DNA of 35,050 nucleotides from a virus. Each line of letters begins with the position of its first letter. Within the stretch, counting starts at the first letter, position 1. The notes beneath the pieces are model-generated. The model was not told the origin of the DNA, did not search any database, and saw nothing but the letters and a program-made list of their open reading frames with translations. Both the position numbers and the translations under genes were made by a program. The stretch lies in UHGV virus genome UHGV-0197915; one strand, written 5' to 3'. Shown piece by piece: positions 404 through 35,050 of the stretch.

Positions 404-412
404 ATCCGTTTC

Positions 413-499
413 GCTGAAAAACATAACCCATAAAATGCTAGCTGTACCAGGAACCACCTCCTTAGCCTGTGTAATCTCCCTTACACGGGCTTATTTTTT
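413..499 (+). ncRNA. cyaR: CyaR (RyeE) Hfq-dependent small RNA
   Basis: GCTGAAAAACATAACCCATAAAATGCTAGCTGTACCAGGAACCACCTCCTTAGCCTGTGTAATCTCCCTTACACGGGCTTATTTTTT matches the CyaR sequence as I recall it; terminator hairpin plus T-tract at the 3' end. Confidence 0.85.
478..499. repeat. attL core (22-bp direct repeat CCCTTACACGGGCTTATTTTTT), overlapping the cyaR terminator
   Basis: Identical to 33547-33568; flanking bases differ on both sides. Confidence 0.75.
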
Positions 500-563: not shown

Positions 564-2407
564 CGAGTAGGAGGCGGGATCACTCCCGCCGTCCTCTCAC
601 ACCACCGTACATGCGGCTCCGCATACGGCGGTTCATGTTAACACTGGAACTGCCTCTGCTGTTCCAGCAGTGATATCAGACCCTGCCTGCTGAACCACGC
701 ATTCTTTATCGCCTGATTCATATGGCTTGACCCTGAGTTCCACCATGGCCCGTGGTTGTTGTACGCTGAGATCATCGCCCTGTCCTTACTCAGCCCCGCT
801 CTTTGCAGGTTCTTCGTCCGGGTTCCCGGCCTCTTCCACTGCCGCCACAACAGGCACCGCAGTTTCCGTTTGATCCAGCCGTCCAGCTCTTCCTGCACTC
901 CTCTGACTTCCGTCAGCCTGAAGTAGCTTATCCATCCACGCAGCACTGGCGTCAGGGCATTGATTGTCGCTTTCACTGATTTGCTCCGGTTTCCCGTGGT
1001 CAGACTGCGGACTTTCTCCTTCAGCCTGTTCACGCTCGTCAGGGCTATTTTCAGCTTCGCCTGTTTGTGCCATGTCACACTGTACCCGAGGAACTTCCGC
1101 TCCCACGGGCGCGCCACCGCGCTCTTCTTCTCATTCACCTTCAGTTTCATTTTGTTCTCCACGAACGCCCTGATGTTCTTCAGCAGATGGTCGCCCGCTT
1201 TCCGGCTGCTTACGTTGATGTTGCAGTCGTCTGCGTAGCGGCAGAAGCTGTGTCAACGACGCTCCAGTTCTTTATCCAGTTCATCCAGCAGGATGTTCGA
1301 CAGTAACGGCGACAGCGGGCCGCCCTGCGGCATGCCCGCCTGTCCTTTATCGTTCTGGCCAGACGCGTCATCAGGAGCCTGTGATCCACCCGGTCAAAGA
1401 ACTTCTCCAGATCCATATCCACCACCCACCGTTTGCCGCCCCGTATGTAACGCTGTGCCTGTTGCACCGCCTGCCATGCGTTGCGCCCCGGCCGGAAGCC
1501 GTAGCTGGAGTCTGAGAAGCTTTTGTCCACGATGGCACTTAACTGCTGCGCAATCGCCTGCTGGATAAGCCTGTCCACCACCGTCGGGATGCCTAAGGTT
1601 CTCACGCCGCCATCCGGCTTCGGGATATCCATCCGGCGTATTGCCCGCGGCTGGTAGTTTCCGTCAATCAATGCCTGCCTGACACTGCGCCAGTTCTTCT
1701 TCAGCCACGGTTTCAACTCCGCCACGCTGAGGTTATCCACCCCCGCCGCGCCTTTGTTTTCCACCACGCGCTGATAAGCCAGCATCAGGTTTTCTCTCGT
1801 TATCACCGCTTCCATCGTCAGCGGCACTTCCGCTTTCGTTTGCCCACCCGCCGCCGTGCTGATTTCAGCGCCATCATGCAGCCCTGACGGATACCGTCCG
1901 TCTCCTCTGCCGCTGGCCGCAGTTGCCTGCGCTTGTGCTTCATTAATCATCATCGGGTTCGGATGTCCTAATCACGGTTAATCATGTTCGGCCCTTCATG
2001 CTGCCGGTTTTGCAGCACTACTACGGCGTCGGCTGACTTCTGCCGCCCCATCCCGGCACCTTACGACGCCGGTAGCACACTGGCAGGACGGCAGTTCTCC
2101 CGGGGTAATTCGCGCGACTTTCCTGCTTATGCCTGTCGGCTCTACGTTACAGCGTTCCGTGTGAGTATCGGGCTTTGGTGATGTATGCCACCTTACCCCG
2201 CTGCGCCGCCTTAACCGCTTCCTGTTCGTCAGGCCAGCATTTTGCATCCGGCTTCCTTCAGATTTCACCTCGCGATGAACACCCTTGCCTTCCGCTAACA
2301 CTTCCCCTCACCGGGTGTGTGGAGGACTTTCACCTCTTAGTCGTTCTTCAGCCACCACAGTTGAAGAACAGCGCCAGTCACGGCGCTACGCGCCATGCCC
2401 GGCGCAC
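564..2407 (-). mobile_element. Group II intron (bacterial class C-like placement), degenerate
   Basis: 5' end GTGCG (reverse complement of 2403-2407) 8-9 nt after a terminator hairpin; domain V-like hairpin near 605-640; RT/maturase ORF inside; intron-free version of the 3' flank present at 33601-33620. Confidence 0.7.
638..1953 (-). pseudogene. Group II intron-encoded reverse transcriptase/maturase, disrupted
   Basis: RT domains 0-4 in ORF 1210-1953; frame breaks near 1331-1345 where ~25 aa before the xPQGGxLSPLL motif are missing; in-frame TGA at 1253-1255 before the YADD motif; maturase domain continues in ORF 638-1162. Confidence 0.75.
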
Positions 2408-2540: not shown

Positions 2541-2750
2541 TTAGTTATCAATAGATAACTGTTTCATCATCTCTTCAGTAAGCTTAAACGAGCGCATTGT
2601 CAATTCTGCATGACGACGCATCAGATCAACAAAGCCGGGATTGGATGAGTTTGCGCAATTTGTTAGTGCTTGATTTGCCGTTAGCATAGAAATCTCTTGA
2701 AGTTGCTCATTTATTTCTCTGGTTTTTTGCATATATTCATCAAAAGTCAT
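2541..2750 (-). CDS. Hypothetical small protein (69 aa)
   Basis: AT-rich ORF between ogr and the terminator; no recognisable motif. Confidence 0.4.
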   Translation of the reverse strand: MTFDEYMQKTREINEQLQEISMLTANQALTNCANSSNPGFVDLMRRHAELTMRSFKLTEEMMKQLSIDN

Positions 2751-2852: not shown

Positions 2853-3074
2853 TCACATCCATTGAATTTGCTGCTGACCTGACGTTGTTGGATGCGGCGG
2901 CGCGGGTACTACCTCGCCCGATGATACGATGAAACGCTCGACTGTTTCAGTGGTCACAAACGTGCAACTGCAGTTGATGTTTGTGCACTGGTGATACCGC
3001 TCTTTTGTGGTATCAGTAAAATAGCGACTCGTGCGGGCGTGGGCGGCATGATGGCATTTCGGACAATGAAACAT
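2853..3074 (-). CDS. ogr: Ogr/Delta zinc-finger late-gene transcription activator
   Basis: MFHCPKCHHAAHARTSRYFTDTTKERYHQC…SGQQQIQWM closely resembles P2 Ogr as recalled; start placed at the Met preceding FHCP. Confidence 0.85.
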   Translation of the reverse strand: MFHCPKCHHAAHARTSRYFTDTTKERYHQCTNINCSCTFVTTETVERFIVSSGEVVPAPPHPTTSGQQQIQWM

Positions 3075-3155
3075 GATGAGGGTCTCCGGCGTATTCAATG
3101 TGTTAATTTTACTCATTTTTCACTTATAAAACAAACACATAATTAAAACACATCG

Positions 3156-14572: not shown

Positions 14573-15154
14573 TTATTTTCCACAAACCATATTATCTATC
14601 GCGGCCATATAGGATACAAACAGATCTACATAACCACTTACGTCAGTGAGACTAATATCATTTGCATTGTCGTTATGATGAATAATGTTATTTCTCTTTA
14701 CAACCACTGCATTCACAACATCCTTATTCGCATTAAATTCCGCCGAATTCAAAAGATTAACACCCAAATAAGAAAATGCCTTAATCGTCTTGTAAGGATT
14801 ACCAGATAGGCTATCCGACACCTCACTTTTATCAACCTTTAAATCAGCATCTATATATTTCAACTCCTTATCTTTAACATCTTTTTTGACTCGCCAAAGC
14901 AAAAAATTGTGTGGCAAGCAGGCTGCTTTAAGCCTGCGATTGATGGTATCGCAGTGCCATGTTGCAACCTCAGTCAAATACGACTCTAAATAAGTGCAGA
15001 GTGTAATAAGATACGATTTAACAAAAAAATTAATGTTCTTATTGAAGAATTCATTTTCCTCAAGGATAGCCTGTTGCTCCGTCTCCTTAATAATTTCTTT
15101 TAAGGATAAAAATAATGAACGATATCCATCATAGTATTCAGTATTTTCCATCAA
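14573..15154 (-). CDS. HEPN-like protein (RNxxxH motif), predicted RNase-type effector
   Basis: 193 aa, AT-rich; KRNNIIHH matches the HEPN Rx4-6H signature; overlaps the upstream DUF262 gene by 17 nt. Confidence 0.5.
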   Translation of the reverse strand: MMENTEYYDGYRSLFLSLKEIIKETEQQAILEENEFFNKNINFFVKSYLITLCTYLESYLTEVATWHCDTINRRLKAACLPHNFLLWRVKKDVKDKELKYIDADLKVDKSEVSDSLSGNPYKTIKAFSYLGVNLLNSAEFNANKDVVNAVVVKRNNIIHHNDNANDISLTDVSGYVDLFVSYMAAIDNMVCGK

Positions 15155-16187
15155 TAACTTCCTTAAGAAGTGCCACCCAACTAGCCCTACGCTTCATCAC
15201 CGAACTCTTATTCTGTAGCCCACCTGATAAAGTTTTTTTGAACTCAGCACTTGAACAAAGAGTAAACCAAGCATTCCGTATTTGTTCGGACTTTTCATTT
15301 ACAATATCATCATTTAACTTGCCAATTGTAGGCATTAAAATGTCATAATGAACTAACCCTTTACGTTTTCTCCTAACTGTAGGGTTTGTAAATACATCTT
15401 CACCAAATATTTTTTCACACTTAGATAATGATGTTTTGAATCTCTCCCTCATAATATTCAGTTCATCATCTTTTAAGTCTGAAAATTTTTCCATATGATC
15501 ATCCAAGAATTCTTTCAAGGAGCTATCAAAGTAATCAAAAAAGTTATCTTCATAAAATGCAAAAAAACGCAAAACTTGTTCGTCTGGCTCACGACTATCT
15601 CTTTTTACTGTAGTTGTTTCCGCCAAACCAAAATTTTTAATGGCATCAATATTACCTAACTCTTCTAATAATTCATCAAACCCTCCCGGATATAACGCAT
15701 GTCTTATTTCTTGGTCAGAAAGTTTAACTGCCCCCTGATTGAGTCTAGAAAATATCTCTCTTATTAATTTTTTGGGATTTTCTTTTCTTAGAACAATGCA
15801 TCTTATTGTTGTCGACTCTAACTCTGAACGTAGAGATCCTAATTCAGAAAACTTTTTCCCTTCAAGCTCTTTAAATGTAGTCATTCCCTCCAAAGCGAAC
15901 TCGTCATCAAAAAATTTCTGTATTGTGGTTAATCGCTGAACACCATCAATTACAATATGATTGCCGCTATCATCTTCTGCAAAGTAACAAGATGGAAGAG
16001 GAATACGCATTAAACAAGATTCAATGAATTTTGAAGATCGCAGCCATCCGTCCTGATCCCATTTGTACTTTCTTTGAAAGTCTGGATTCAGTTTTAGTTT
16101 GATGGGATTGGACTTCATCCTAGAACATAAAGTCTCAAATGGATAATCTATGGGGAATAAATTCAATGTTTTATCATCGTTAGACAT
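15138..16187 (-). CDS. DUF262 (ParB/GmrS-like NTP-binding) domain protein
   Basis: 349 aa; N-terminal PDFQRKYKWD … IDGVQRLTT motifs characteristic of DUF262; AT-rich cargo gene between S and V. Confidence 0.6.
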   Translation of the reverse strand: MSNDDKTLNLFPIDYPFETLCSRMKSNPIKLKLNPDFQRKYKWDQDGWLRSSKFIESCLMRIPLPSCYFAEDDSGNHIVIDGVQRLTTIQKFFDDEFALEGMTTFKELEGKKFSELGSLRSELESTTIRCIVLRKENPKKLIREIFSRLNQGAVKLSDQEIRHALYPGGFDELLEELGNIDAIKNFGLAETTTVKRDSREPDEQVLRFFAFYEDNFFDYFDSSLKEFLDDHMEKFSDLKDDELNIMRERFKTSLSKCEKIFGEDVFTNPTVRRKRKGLVHYDILMPTIGKLNDDIVNEKSEQIRNAWFTLCSSAEFKKTLSGGLQNKSSVMKRRASWVALLKEVIDGKY

Positions 16188-23934: not shown

Positions 23935-24942
23935 ATGAAAAAACGACAGAAGAAACCCGCCACAATGACCGCCAGCGCACCGCAAAAAATGGAGGCGTTT
24001 ACCTTTGGTGAGCCGTCCCCCGTTCTGGATCGCCGCGACATCCTCGACTATGTCGAGTGCATCAATAACGGGAAATGGTACGAGCCGCCGGTCAATTTCT
24101 CGGGACTGGCAAAAAGCCTGCGCGCCGCCGTTCACCACAGCTCGCCGATTTACGTGAAGCGTAACATTCTGGCGAGCACCTACATTCCGCACCCGTTGCT
24201 GTCGCGTCAGGATTTCAGCCGTCTTGTGCTCGATTATCTGGTCTTTGCCAACGGCTATCTTGAGAAGCGCATGAGCGTCACCGGCCAGCTATTAAAACTG
24301 GAAACCTCCCCGGCCAAATACACCCGCCGGGGTGTCGAGGATGGCGTTTACTGGTACGTATCGAGCTACACCCAGCCGCACCCGTTCGCGCCCGGCTCGG
24401 TGTGTCATCTGCTTGAGCCCGATATCAATCAGGAACTTTACGGGATGCCGGAATACCTGAGCGCACTCAATTCAGCCTGGCTGAATGAATCCGCCACGTT
24501 ATTTCGTCGTAAGTATTACCAGAACGGGGCGCACGCGGGGTATATCATGTATGTCACCGACGCGGCACAGAGTAGCACCGACGTTGAATCGCTCCGTAAC
24601 GCGATGCGCGACTCAAAAGGGCTGGGGAATTTTAAGAACCTGTTTTTCTACGCGCCCAACGGAAAGCCAGACGGGATCAAGATTGTGCCGTTGAGTGAAG
24701 TCGCCACGAAGGATGATTTTTTCAACATCAAAAAGGTCAGTGCCGCTGACCTGCTCGATGCGCACCGCGTGCCGTTTCAGCTGATGGGCGGCAAGCCGGA
24801 AAACATCGGCTCAATGGGTGACGTTGAGAAGGTGGCGCGGGTGTTTGTGCGTAACGAGCTGACGCCATTGCAGGAGCGTTTCAAAGAGATTAACGACTGG
24901 CTTCAAGAAGATGTAATACAATTTGAAAAATATTCTATTTAA
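23935..24942 (+). CDS. Q: Portal protein gpQ
   Basis: ATG at 23935 directly after the P stop; 335 aa. Confidence 0.85.
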   Translation: MKKRQKKPATMTASAPQKMEAFTFGEPSPVLDRRDILDYVECINNGKWYEPPVNFSGLAKSLRAAVHHSSPIYVKRNILASTYIPHPLLSRQDFSRLVLDYLVFANGYLEKRMSVTGQLLKLETSPAKYTRRGVEDGVYWYVSSYTQPHPFAPGSVCHLLEPDINQELYGMPEYLSALNSAWLNESATLFRRKYYQNGAHAGYIMYVTDAAQSSTDVESLRNAMRDSKGLGNFKNLFFYAPNGKPDGIKIVPLSEVATKDDFFNIKKVSAADLLDAHRVPFQLMGGKPENIGSMGDVEKVARVFVRNELTPLQERFKEINDWLQEDVIQFEKYSI

Positions 24943-24994: not shown

Positions 24995-25705
24995 CTAAAT
25001 TTCAAAAATAATCAATGAATAATTATCCCTAGTCTCTCTACTCTCAACAAGCTCTATTACACTAGCACCATACTCATTTAACGAATTATATTTCACTGAA
25101 AGATCTCGGAAATCTTTTTTGCTCACAACTGACGAAACCCCGTCAGATAGCAAAGCTATTCTATCACCTATCTGTAAATTACATTCAAATTCATGGACTT
25201 GTAGAGGCTTGTGTGCACCAAGGGCACTATCAAGAATGTTCTTACGAGGGTAATCAACTGCAGTCTCTTTCGTCAGCTTACCTTCACGTAGTAGACGAGC
25301 TACTTCACTGTGATCATAGGAAAGTTGTTTGACGCCACTTCCTCTTAATAGATAAGTCCGAGAATCTCCACAATTGGCTCCTATCAATTTATTCCCGATA
25401 AGCTTTGTTACAGTCACAGTACTTGCCATTCCAGCCAATTTTCCATCTTTCTGAGCAGCATCTTTGATCGCTTCATCAGCTCGGGTTATGGCTTCGAGAA
25501 GAGAGATGCTACTATCCGAACGCATGGCCGCAGCAATAATGTCCAGTGCTAATTGAGAGGCTGTTTCTCCCCCCAAATTCCCGCCGACACCATCCGCAAC
25601 GCCACATAACAAATCAGCGCTGGGTAAAATCTCAACCAAGATAGAGTCTTGGTTGTGGCTTCTAGGTCCCGGAGATGTGTAAGCAAATTTATTAATCAAT
25701 GGCAT
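24995..25705 (-). CDS. PP2C-family Ser/Thr protein phosphatase
   Basis: 236 aa with GVADGVGG, GDSR and SDGV motifs; AT-rich; start overlaps the kinase stop by 10 nt. Confidence 0.7.
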   Translation of the reverse strand: MPLINKFAYTSPGPRSHNQDSILVEILPSADLLCGVADGVGGNLGGETASQLALDIIAAAMRSDSSISLLEAITRADEAIKDAAQKDGKLAGMASTVTVTKLIGNKLIGANCGDSRTYLLRGSGVKQLSYDHSEVARLLREGKLTKETAVDYPRKNILDSALGAHKPLQVHEFECNLQIGDRIALLSDGVSSVVSKKDFRDLSVKYNSLNEYGASVIELVESRETRDNYSLIIFEI

Positions 25706-27027
25706 ACTCTTTGTATCATTGCGAAAAGTTCAGGATGAAGCATATCAGGTGTGGCACCAATTGATCTTTGGAGATGACTCACCGCTGCACACATTCTACC
25801 CTCAAGTATGCTCATTTCCAAAGCAAGCCTTTTAGCCAGTTCTGGAGTCATGTCGTGCCCTGCCACGCTCATGAAGCGTCTCTCGACATACCAACGATTA
25901 TGCGACGTTCCCATAAGAAGCATAGCTATAATAATTTCGGCTTTACAGTTCAAATCGTGAAGTTGTAAAAATTGTTCGAGACGAGTGCAAATCCCATCAC
26001 ACTGTTCGAATGAAAATACTCCATCCGCAACCCAACGACCATATGCTTCACCAAGACGACAAGCTAGCGTGGTATCATGAGCGATTATCTCATTAATCCT
26101 GTTTAAAGTTAGACGCTGAAATATCACCTTGGAGTTTTCTTGTCCAATATTATCCTCTACGAAATTGATTATTTCCCTCCATGTTTCAACATTAATTCCG
26201 GCGTCACTATCTAATGCTGTAGTATATGTTCCAACCTCAGCAGAGAGATGTATTACTGTAGAAGGATCAATACTAAGAATTGCATCCCTTAATGCTGCAA
26301 CACTTGGAAATCTTCTTGAAGGATCTCTACGAGTACAAACCCGTAAAATATGCGCATATGCGCTCGAATCATTATTAATTTCACCACAAGGAATTCTTTC
26401 ATCCGTGCCTACAAAGTCATGCAGTATACACCCCAAAGAATAAATATCTGAAGCAATACTAGCTTTTCTAAGATCTGAAACAATTTCAGGTGCGGTGTAG
26501 TAATCAGAACCCATTTTCATACCTGTATGGGTTAGTGCTGAAATTTGAGTATCTTTTACTGACATCAGGCCAAAGTCGCTAATAGCGTAATATGGACCTT
26601 CACTTGAATCAAATCTAAGCACATTTTGTGGTTTGAGATCACGATGATAAATTTGCAACGTGTGCAATTCTTCGAGTCCAGACAAAATATCCATTATTGC
26701 TCTTAAAAATAATCCATTCAAGTTTCTACTTTGCGCAATATCTTTATCAAGGCTAGATGCTGCTACTGGCATAAGGAAAGATGGAGGGTTACTATTTAGA
26801 TCTTTAAAAAGGACAGGTACAATATTTTTATGCGTAAGTCTATACTGTACGTTTGCCTCTCTTATAAATCTTTTTTTTACATTCTCTGCCAAATCAGGAG
26901 GCAGCGGTTGAGCTTGATTTATAGAAAATGTTTTCCTAGCGAATTGCTTTCCGCTAAGGACATCTTGCACTAAATCAACATTACCAAAACCGCCACTACC
27001 TATCCGTCTAACTTCATTAATCACCAT
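25696..27027 (-). CDS. Eukaryotic-like Ser/Thr protein kinase with ~180-aa C-terminal domain of unknown function
   Basis: 443 aa with GSGGFGNV glycine loop, HRDLKPQN catalytic loop, DFG and APE motifs; AT-rich. Confidence 0.75.
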   Translation of the reverse strand: MVINEVRRIGSGGFGNVDLVQDVLSGKQFARKTFSINQAQPLPPDLAENVKKRFIREANVQYRLTHKNIVPVLFKDLNSNPPSFLMPVAASSLDKDIAQSRNLNGLFLRAIMDILSGLEELHTLQIYHRDLKPQNVLRFDSSEGPYYAISDFGLMSVKDTQISALTHTGMKMGSDYYTAPEIVSDLRKASIASDIYSLGCILHDFVGTDERIPCGEINNDSSAYAHILRVCTRRDPSRRFPSVAALRDAILSIDPSTVIHLSAEVGTYTTALDSDAGINVETWREIINFVEDNIGQENSKVIFQRLTLNRINEIIAHDTTLACRLGEAYGRWVADGVFSFEQCDGICTRLEQFLQLHDLNCKAEIIIAMLLMGTSHNRWYVERRFMSVAGHDMTPELAKRLALEMSILEGRMCAAVSHLQRSIGATPDMLHPELFAMIQRVCH

Positions 27028-33546: not shown

Positions 33547-33568
33547 CCCTTACACGGGCTTATTTTTT
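33547..33568. repeat. attR core (22-bp direct repeat CCCTTACACGGGCTTATTTTTT)
   Basis: Identical to 478-499. Confidence 0.75.
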
Positions 33569-33726
33569 ATGCATAAGCCCTATCCCTGGTCACCGTCTTC
33601 CATTGACCACATCGATAGAATCTCCCTTCATAGCACGATGCCTTTCACGTAACGGCATCGTGCTCGCACAGGTTCCGGCTAAGCACAACCAGAACGCGCA
33701 TGTTTGACGCTTACCAAAAAATATTC

Positions 33727-34044
33727 TCACTCTCCACATTTGAATGTCAGACGAGCGACGCCATGTAATCCTGCACCTTCTGTCTTCAGGTCAACTATCT
33801 GCATTTTTTTGCCCTGAGTAACACAGAAATGGGCTGCATCATTTTTTACTATATTTTCTGCACCAGATATTCTGCCCCTGGCTAAAGAAGCTTCGGCTTC
33901 GGTGTAGTATTGGTTATCGAGTTTACGCTGAATATTACTTTTATATGCAAGACCAAATTTACCGATACTTGTCTCATCATTATGCACAGCACAACCAGAC
34001 ATAATAAAAATACTAATTAATGATATAGCAGCTATCTTTTTCAT
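33727..34044 (-). CDS. yegR: Lipoprotein YegR
   Basis: Start at MKKIAAISLISIFIMSGC (lipobox); 105 aa; synteny with yegS. Confidence 0.8.
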   Translation of the reverse strand: MKKIAAISLISIFIMSGCAVHNDETSIGKFGLAYKSNIQRKLDNQYYTEAEASLARGRISGAENIVKNDAAHFCVTQGKKMQIVDLKTEGAGLHGVARLTFKCGE

Positions 34045-34458
34045 CTCACCTTCCCCCATTAAATACCAACGACACTCTCTAGTGTTTAAATATAATAATG
34101 GCATGATTATTATAATTGAATAGGATTATAATAAATGTTCTGTACAACATTTCCTACATAAGTAGGAATTACGGACATTGAGGCCCTTCAGGGTAACTCC
34201 ATGGGGGCTTTAATATATTTGGAATAGTATATTTAAGATGCCACTGTTTGGTTGAATATTAGGCATATGCTCTTTTTTGAAATTTATCGGTGGCAGCCGT
34301 TAGTATTCGCTGTCCCCATTGCAAGCTCCTGGTGGTAACCACTGAATCCTCCATACTTGAACTGACTTTTTATCCTCCGACTTTCATCCTGTTCTGACTC
34401 CACCTTTTGTTTTCTGCTCTACACTATCTACAGACCAATCATAAAGGCACATACGATC

Positions 34459-35050
34459 ATGGCAGAATTTCCCGCCAGCTTACTGATTCTTAATGGCAAA
34501 AGTACTGACAATCTACCCTTGCGCGAAGCAATTATGCTGTTGCGTGAGGAAGGAATGACGATCCATGTGCGGGTCACCTGGGAGAAAGGCGATGCCGCAC
34601 GATATGTAGAGGAGGCCCGGAAGTTGGGCGTCGCAACGGTGATTGCCGGTGGTGGCGATGGCACCATTAATGAAGTTTCTACGGCGTTGATTCAGTGTGA
34701 GGGGGATGACATACCCGCGCTGGGAATTTTGCCATTAGGAACCGCCAATGATTTTGCCACCAGTGTAGGGATTCCTGAGGCACTGGATAAGGCGCTGAAA
34801 CTGGCAATTGCCGGTAACGCCATTGCGATAGATATGGCGCAGGTCAACAAACAAACCTGTTTTATTAATATGGCGACAGGCGGATTTGGGACGCGTATTA
34901 CCACAGAAACGCCGGAAAAATTAAAAGCCGCGCTGGGTGGCGTCTCTTACATCATTCATGGCTTAATGCGCATGGATACTCTGCAACCGGACCGTTGTGA
35001 AATCCGCGGTGAAAACTTTCACTGGCAAGGTGACGCCCTGGTCATTGGTA
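34459..35050 (+). CDS. yegS: Lipid kinase YegS (3'-partial; continues beyond the window)
   Basis: [15 protein letters not shown]…[10 protein letters not shown]… diacylglycerol-kinase-like catalytic motif; no stop before the window end. Confidence 0.85.

Follow-up and report, generated by a model that had tools for sequence, protein, structure and literature searches.

The window analysed here, a 35,050-nt stretch of virus genome UHGV-0197915, carries a P2-like (Peduovirus) prophage and, close to one end of it, a reverse transcriptase (RT)/maturase gene lying within a group II intron. Coordinates are window positions, the intron is read on the minus strand (as are its gene and its exons) and comparisons between copies are sequence alignments. 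Entering from the chromosome, the region begins with the small RNA (sRNA) gene cyaR (411–496, plus strand; RF00112, 100.7 bits), which is the sole Rfam match in the window other than those to the intron. The attachment (att) core is present as two exact 22-nt copies. The ogr-side one (478–499) corresponds to the attP core of P2 and coincides in part with the cyaR 3' end and terminator; the int-side one lies at 33547–33568, and the integrase gene adjoins it in the annotation of the E. coli genome KV7. There follow the integrase arm sites, the intron, a transcription terminator and the gene ogr (2853–3116; Ogr_Delta, E 2.5e-20). The intron is very probably an immobilised copy of an E.c.I6-family class C (IIC) intron, which persists as a neutral passenger of the prophage.

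Intron boundaries, RNA domains and class

To define the boundaries we aligned the copies in KV7 (same site), plasmid pPSJ-14_2, FELIX_MS533, an IS66-associated gut-metagenome contig and CFT073. Every aligned copy starts GTGCGCC and finishes CCTACTCGAT, and the flanks differ immediately beyond both points. With four independent insertion sites in the alignment, the 5' end falls at 2407 and the 3' end at 562 (...CUACUCGAU), the latter in line with the UACYCGAU with which more than 50 relatives from other phyla finish. The original prediction, made from the sequence alone, had placed the 3' junction at 564, give or take 2 nt; the end itself is 562, so that the position has shifted but stays inside the tolerance then allowed. 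The intron is complete, running from 2407 to 562, and measures 1846 nt as against 1919 nt in its intact form. Its ends fit the group II rule (5' GUGYG ... AY 3'), with GUGCG at 2407–2403, the same in every copy and with flanks that differ directly upstream, and ...CGAU ending at 562.

Three Rfam intron models match above their gathering thresholds. Two of them, RF02001 (D1-D4-3; 2279–2110, minus strand, 135.9 bits, E 3.5e-28) and RF01998 (D1-D4-1; 2075–1991, minus strand, 70.5 bits, E 6.5e-11), match over their full length, which indicates that the domain I–IV ribozyme core is present. The third, RF00029 (domains V/VI; 633–562, minus strand, 48.5 bits, the gathering score being 40, E 1e-6), covers the 3' end. 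Domain V (602–631; RF00029 alignment, fold z = -6.1) has a CGC triad at 630–628, a 2-nt bulge and a 3-bp distal stem closed by a GAGC loop, and its alignment to the Rfam model requires a 4-nt deletion in that distal stem. Domain VI (564–599; RF00029 alignment and fold) has a bulged branch-point A at 568, the seventh nucleotide from the 3' end. Further upstream, an 11-nt motif containing AGGAA (AUCUGAAGGAA, 2253–2263) is unpaired in the RF02001 alignment, a hallmark of class IIC. The RNA hallmarks described for this class are a CGC instead of an AGC triad, a domain V distal stem shorter by 2 bp, an 11-nt bulge with AGGAA, a short pairing between intron-binding site 1 (IBS1) and exon-binding site 1 (EBS1), and the absence of EBS2 (PMC1702495), and most of these were seen directly in the window intron.

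The encoded protein was examined after repair, that is, as the KV7 sequence with its TGA read as GGA. The resulting 462 aa match RVT_1 (E 1.7e-44) and GIIM (E 5.7e-21) in Pfam, with no further domain after GIIM and hence no endonuclease domain. Its class was judged by match strength to all PDB chains. The top match is the GsI-IIC RT (6AR1, E 3.8e-139), followed by a group II intron RT/maturase (7UIM, E 5.5e-108) from the ribonucleoprotein (RNP) of the E. rectale IIC intron, and by 5HHJ and 5HHL (E about 1e-86), deposited as retron-type RTs and corresponding to the RT domains of the Roseburia/Eubacterium IIC maturases. LtrA, of class IIA (5G2X, E 1e-43), and the class IIB maturase RT 6ME0 (E 4e-34) are weaker than the best IIC RT by some 95 or more orders of magnitude.

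Because the protein lacks an endonuclease domain and is nearest to IIC RTs, the RNA bears the class hallmarks, and the insertion sites follow GC-rich hairpins (see below), the element is assigned on its sequence to the bacterial class C group II introns. That it might instead be another kind of RT element, such as a retron or a defence RT, or a chance resemblance, has the presence of an RT domain in its favour and nothing beyond it, while the three Rfam models, the GIIM domain, the GUGCG...AU ends and the bulged A of domain VI all speak against it, and the scores of retron and defence RTs are poorer by about 130 orders of magnitude or more; we consider this extremely improbable and have rejected it. 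The original prediction had proposed a group II intron of class C from a domain V-like hairpin and an RT/maturase gene, and had suggested the RF00029 comparison as a check. The search carried out accordingly upholds each of these points, and domain V/VI structure and RT homology, on which it had staked its case, are both present.

Insertion behind the ogr terminator and target recognition

The 5' exon ends in a rho-independent terminator hairpin, AAAGCCCCGC-ATTT-GCGGGGCTTT (2414–2437; terminator scan, fold -20.4 kcal/mol), the whole exon tail reading AAAGCCCCGC-ATTT-GCGGGGC-TTTTTGTAT. The GTGCG of the intron starts 9 nt (TTTTTGTAT) past the GC stem of the hairpin at 2437–2414, and IIC introns are known to insert 3–11 nt past a stem-loop, be it a terminator or not. 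The terminator aligns with P2 24265–24288, annotated as the ‘rho-independent terminator for ogr transcript and F operon’, which in the matched stretch of P2 is followed by the ‘Int P arm’ (24293–24320), ‘IHF’ (integration host factor) and ‘attP core’. The 3' exon correspondingly begins with the integrase P-arm binding repeats of attP/attR (CGATGTGGTCAATGTGTGGACA..., 535–561, aligned to the P2 ‘Int P arm’ 24293–24320), of which C561 would be IBS3. The insertion point thus lies 1 nt within the annotated P-arm footprint of P2 and 3 nt ahead of the first TGTGG repeat. We considered whether the intron splits the components of attP and rejected this, since the alignment to P2 places the arm repeats, the IHF site and the core, still contiguous, all on the 3' side of the intron.

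Empty sites are plentiful. When the two flanks were joined in silico and used as a query, uninterrupted matches across the junction were found at this locus in numerous E. coli prophages; the empty site of prophage WP2-S18-ESBL-07 (GCGGGGCTTTTTGTAT joined to CGATGTGGTCAATGTGTGGACATTG) is identical over the junction, and phage P2 also carries a matching site. The joined flanks match these empty sites exactly, without duplication, and the predicted ligated-exon junction of the window intron is GGGGCUUUUUGUAU joined to CGAUGUGGUC. The insertion is, as judged from these alignments, precise; it has the terminator on one side and the integrase arm site on the other, and splits no gene or recombination site. 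Since the intron sits behind a strong terminator, little transcription reaches the insertion point and little RNA is made. Most of what had been said of the placement holds: the start 8–9 nt after a GC-rich terminator hairpin was measured at 9 nt, the terminator called that of the ogr operon is the homologue of the annotated one in P2, and continuity of the flanks with the intron in related phages, which would have told against an insertion, is the opposite of what P2 and the other prophages exhibit.

One claim did not survive. An intron-free copy of the flank had been reported at 33601–33620, and we rejected this segment as an allelic empty site. The match is of 16 nt only (33601–33616, minus strand, identical with 548–563), the sequence upstream of it is unrelated to the ogr terminator, and it lies outside the present prophage, in the chromosome beyond the int-proximal core, in a region that aligns to the P2 P arm but is truncated, the IHF segment being absent. 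This 16-nt site is best read as what remains of the attR arm of an older P2-like prophage, presumably the situation found at ogrK in E. coli K-12; it had nevertheless pointed near the right junction. The surrounding stretch (33569–33680) is a decayed copy of the P2 P arm (CGATGTGGTCAATG..GTGACCAG), likewise without the IHF segment, and is preceded by a hairpin (GCACGATGCC...GGCATCGTGC).

To place the site among others, a genome collection was scanned with the intact protein, yielding 80 loci from many phyla. Twenty-one of these with an unambiguously aligned 5' end, together with four independent E. coli sites, formed a set of 25 insertion sites, and at all 25 a strong hairpin rich in GC ends about 6–10 nt upstream of GTGCG, in most cases with a T-run after it. 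In the window intron, too, a hairpin occupies the part of the 5' exon where IBS2 would be. The RF02001 structure identifies the EBS1 hairpin loop as GCAUACAU (2181–2188), with EBS1 itself AUACA at 2186–2182. Hypervariable among 79 relatives, this loop column changes in concert with the 5' exon: across the 25 sites it forms a mean of 3.96 of five possible pairs with the last five exon nucleotides, whereas permuting exons and loops gives 2.43 ± 0.21 and, in 2000 permutations, never more than 3.04. In the window all five pairs form, between AUACA and the IBS1 UGUAU (2408–2412), the five nucleotides that close the 5' exon. For EBS3 the candidate is tentative: column 2142 (G in the window, its suggested partner being C561 at the start of the 3' exon) is the one most complementary to exon position +1 in 52 relatives (52% Watson–Crick, 83% with wobble), a maximum that 14 of 300 permutations equalled.

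Several observations on relatives concern the same recognition. The copy on plasmid pPSJ-14_2 (L002, 2501–4377) has the EBS1 loop GCACAAAU in place of GCAUACAU, and the two substitutions (giving ACAA) fit its own 5' exon end, UUGU in place of GUAU; to judge by this match, the intron has here been retargeted naturally, in a family of about 95% identity. Several other E. coli insertion sites (H112–H119) have the same exon tail, GGGCTTTTTGTAT, as the phage site, which suggests that the E. coli intron family has a preferred terminator-tail consensus. Finally, head-to-tail tandem copies (...CCCGAT/GTGCGC...) occur at L031, L067 and L088, in metagenome-assembled genomes of Bryobacterales, Desulfuromonadales and Pyrinomonadaceae; here the second copy was apparently inserted directly behind the first, with the domain V/VI hairpins of the upstream copy as the target stem-loop.

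Decay of the intron and probable spread of its prophage

The RT/maturase gene is broken at two points. Its N-terminal part (1338–1953; translation and RVT_1) starts with the ATG at 1953 and carries the RT domain up to a deletion junction, while its C-terminal part (638–1337; translation and GIIM) continues in a shifted frame with the PQGG motif, YADD and the maturase/X domain as far as the natural stop, TAA at 640–638. The intact copy, of 1919 nt, encodes a 462-aa protein (cluster P0001) that is 99% identical to the repaired window protein. Alignment to this copy, KV7, A15 and others shows that 73 nt (nucleotides 1071–1143 of the intact copy; 24 codons plus 1 nt, hence the frameshift) are missing at 1338/1337, the exact placement of the junction (1334–1338) being ambiguous over a GGG microhomology (AGGC/GGG ... 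AGGA/GGG). The protein segment lost, VLRLIRRYLKAEIV.DGQREKRQE, lay between the DLEKFFDRV and PQGGPLSPLL motifs. The second lesion is a single substitution, T for G at nucleotide 1226 of the intact copy (window 1255), which turns the GGA of Gly258, present elsewhere, into a premature TGA (1253–1255; codon 258 of 462) upstream of YADD at 1237–1226. Thirteen more substitutions separate the window intron from the intact copy. The original prediction had described both lesions closely, with about 25 aa missing and a frameshift before PQGG near 1331–1345, and an in-frame TGA at 1253–1255 ahead of YADD; the alignment to an intact copy that it recommended gave the deletion its exact size, and other copies read GGA at the stop.

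The TGA is common to the window strain, KV7 and A15, the latter two both having the intron at the same prophage site. The 73-nt deletion is private to the window strain: a search of 5,426 complete E. coli genomes did not turn it up. Because of this distribution, the order of events reads, from the alignments, as insertion, then nonsense mutation, then deletion. Any full-length read-through protein from the window locus would be impossible without recoding, and RefSeq already annotates a same-site copy as an ltrA pseudogene. Intact copies exist elsewhere: on human-gut metagenome contigs beside IS66, ParB and UmuDC-like genes, in the chromosome of E. coli M19 after the ter operon, and on several E. 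coli plasmid records, where they are annotated ltrA and match over the segment tested.

The ribozyme has fared better. Domains V and VI have no differences from the intact copy, and the 5' 454 nt have three, at one of which the intact reference is itself the outlier. The other two, G2148A and T2095A, are private to the window–KV7 lineage. G2148A turns the pair 2205–2148 into C·A, at a position that is C–G in 47 of 79 relatives and co-varies, and T2095A alters a column in which 76 of the 79 have T. The ribozyme therefore remains almost complete but may be beginning to erode, and the element as a whole is probably no longer able to move, or to splice efficiently, unaided.

Over the prophage that carries the intron, the window and KV7 are 99.8% identical, and the KV7 annotation contains a complete P2-type set (int, cox, a replication gene, portal, terminase, capsid and tail genes, D and ogr), with a pseudogene flag on the ltrA of the intron alone. 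This gene set, the att cores, the Ogr_Delta match and the alignment to the P2 attP bear out the earlier placement of the intron within a prophage. Since cyaR ends in the att core, the phage is predicted to integrate into the cyaR terminator, restoring the 3' end of the sRNA from phage sequence.

Divergence from KV7 is 0.09–0.11% inside the prophage, intron included, as against 1.9% in the yegQ–cyaR flank, 5.8% in the 150 nt just beyond the int-side core and 0.8% in yegR–yegS. The switch from low to high divergence falls at the att cores (prophage, 562–33546, versus the flanks 1–477 and 33547–35050), on which ground we regard the prophage as younger than the adjoining chromosome. This pattern suggests that the prophage reached these E. 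coli hosts horizontally with the dead intron already aboard, and therefore that an attP with the intron beside its P arm still works. Among the 5,426 complete genomes, KV7 and A15 are the only two with the intron at the ogr/late-operon terminator, and none of 50,697 phage records carries it, the only matches being fragments of 15% coverage or less.

It is conceivable, though we hold to this only tentatively, that class C introns have a neutral docking site in the terminator/P-arm spacer of a P2-like attP, and that the phage still excises, packages and integrates with the 1.9-kb intron in its attP region. A different outcome would be co-option, in which the 1.85-kb insertion alters attR/attP function (for example by stabilising the prophage) or insulates the convergent transcription of the late operon and cyaR. 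The location, 1 nt inside the annotated P-arm footprint of P2 and with the cyaR end about 65 nt away, lends this some appeal. However, the arm repeats, IHF site and core have stayed together on the 3' side, and the occurrence of the same intron-bearing prophage in diverged chromosomal backgrounds argues that integration still works; moreover, neither the occupancy of this site (two of 5,426 genomes) nor the accumulation of inactivating mutations points to selection. We therefore regard co-option as very unlikely.

Several points nonetheless weigh against a simply dead passenger. With only 3 of 454 nt changed and domains V and VI intact, there would be room for residual or trans-assisted activity, and a helper copy of the intron may exist elsewhere in the genome of the strain, beyond the window. 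The assignment of EBS3 to G2142 is weak, and the inference of spread rests on short flanks (477 and about 1500 nt), in which recombination could give the same pattern. The first two of these points lead to a distinct alternative, namely that the element is non-autonomous yet live, its competent ribozyme splicing and retrohoming whenever another copy in the cell provides an intact E.c.I6-family maturase in trans. Possible sources are at hand, as intact proteins of 99% identity are encoded in E. coli chromosomes and on the contigs with IS66, ParB and UmuDC-like genes. On the other hand, the two lineage-specific substitutions strike a conserved pair and a near-invariant nucleotide, the position behind a strong terminator would leave little RNA, and KV7, which has the same insertion, contains one intron copy only in its chromosome record. 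Maturases, in addition, generally act best in cis, as is established for LtrA. We judge a live element of this kind unlikely, and retain the immobilised passenger as the preferred reading.

Other features of the prophage deserve brief mention. A 69-aa ORF (2541–2750, minus strand) in the AT-rich segment between ogr and the terminator occupies what is a variable position between ogr and attP; it had no match in Pfam or PADLOC, and another prophage at the cyaR locus has a trypsin-like peptidase in its place. In the tail/baseplate region, a two-gene cargo (14573–16187, minus strand) encodes a DUF262/GmrSD_N protein, which matches PADLOC NsnA (6.6e-80) and PD-T4-2_A, and a RiboL-PSP HEPN protein, and is likely an anti-phage defence pair. 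A second defence-like cargo locus (24995–27027, minus strand) encodes a Ser/Thr protein kinase (PADLOC mad6/PD-T4-6-like, about 1e-32) whose gene overlaps that of a PP2C phosphatase.

Proposed history and known relatives

From the established biology of IIC introns, the following history may be proposed. An intron RNP, composed of intron RNA and its endonuclease-less RT/maturase, would have recognised the DNA stem-loop of the phage ogr/late-operon terminator, with the EBS1 loop AUACA pairing with UGUAU 5–9 nt beyond the stem. The RNP would then have reverse-spliced into that strand, in sense orientation, and the inserted intron would have been copied into DNA from a replication-fork primer. 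The protein gene was killed first by the GGA to TGA change and hit later, in the window strain, by the microhomology-flanked 73-nt deletion. The intron would now be a neutral passenger, and the P2-like phage would have spread among E. coli lineages after its death.

This reading settles the annotation of the locus, in that the ‘RT’ and ‘maturase’ fragments called by pipelines are parts of one dead E.c.I6-family class C intron and not of a defence RT or retron. It also provides a dated series of decay, in which a shared stop came first and a private deletion later, and the first changes at conserved ribozyme positions have followed, an order in keeping with the dynamics of extinction that have been put forward for group II introns of enterobacteria (PMC3522654). 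The placement illustrates how targeting of terminators lets introns occupy dense phage genomes without damage, and hints at ferrying by P2-like phages; if the docking-site idea is true, temperate phages would be vehicles that move even dead IIC introns between E. coli lineages.

The closest known system is E.c.I6 itself. Under this name in the Zimmerly database, a class C intron occurs once each in CFT073, ED1a, S88 and APEC O1, always with a disrupted ORF (PMC3522654); its reference coordinates are NC_004431 4320108–4321914 (supplement of Leclercq & Cordaux 2012, PMC3522654). The window intron is 95–97.6% identical in nucleotide sequence to the CFT073 segment over the aligned parts. The family is common: among the 5,426 complete E. 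coli genomes, 1,267 contain a match to it, and 833 of these have one that covers at least 80% of the intron. Both the CFT073 and window copies are class C, follow a terminator hairpin (GCCAGCAG...CTGCTGGCTTTTTGTTAT/GTGCG in CFT073) and have a disrupted ORF. In contrast to the window copy in the attR of a P2-like prophage, that of CFT073 sits between grpO and grpP in a genomic island, and its lesions are independent, with deletions of its own that include one near the 5' end.

More distant systems share the architecture. The repaired window protein aligns end to end with its nearest solved relatives (residues 47–456), the GsI-IIC RT of Geobacillus stearothermophilus (6AR1) and the protein of the Eubacterium rectale IIC RNP (7UIM), and has the same RT-plus-thumb/X architecture; those proteins are intact and active, whereas the window gene is 24 codons short, frameshifted and stopped before YADD. 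The model IIC intron B.h.I1 of Bacillus halodurans (PMC1702495) has the same CGC triad, shortened domain V distal stem, AGGAA bulge, short IBS1–EBS1 pairing, terminator stem-loop at the would-be IBS2 and endonuclease-less protein. It is nevertheless distant in sequence and active with an intact protein, and its IBS1–EBS1 pairing is of 3–4 bp, as against 5 bp in the window. Among the Enterobacterales, Di.ze.I1 and So.gl.I1 (PMC3522654) are likewise class C introns of low copy number located after rho-independent terminators, and So.gl.I1 also includes inactivated fragments; they are, however, other intron species, with no report of either in the attP region of a P2-like phage. The literature, when searched for P2-like prophages carrying group II introns, yielded nothing specific. 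Set beside these systems, the window intron is a fresh copy of a well-known kind, mildly new only in its position in the attP region of an apparently still-transmissible phage.

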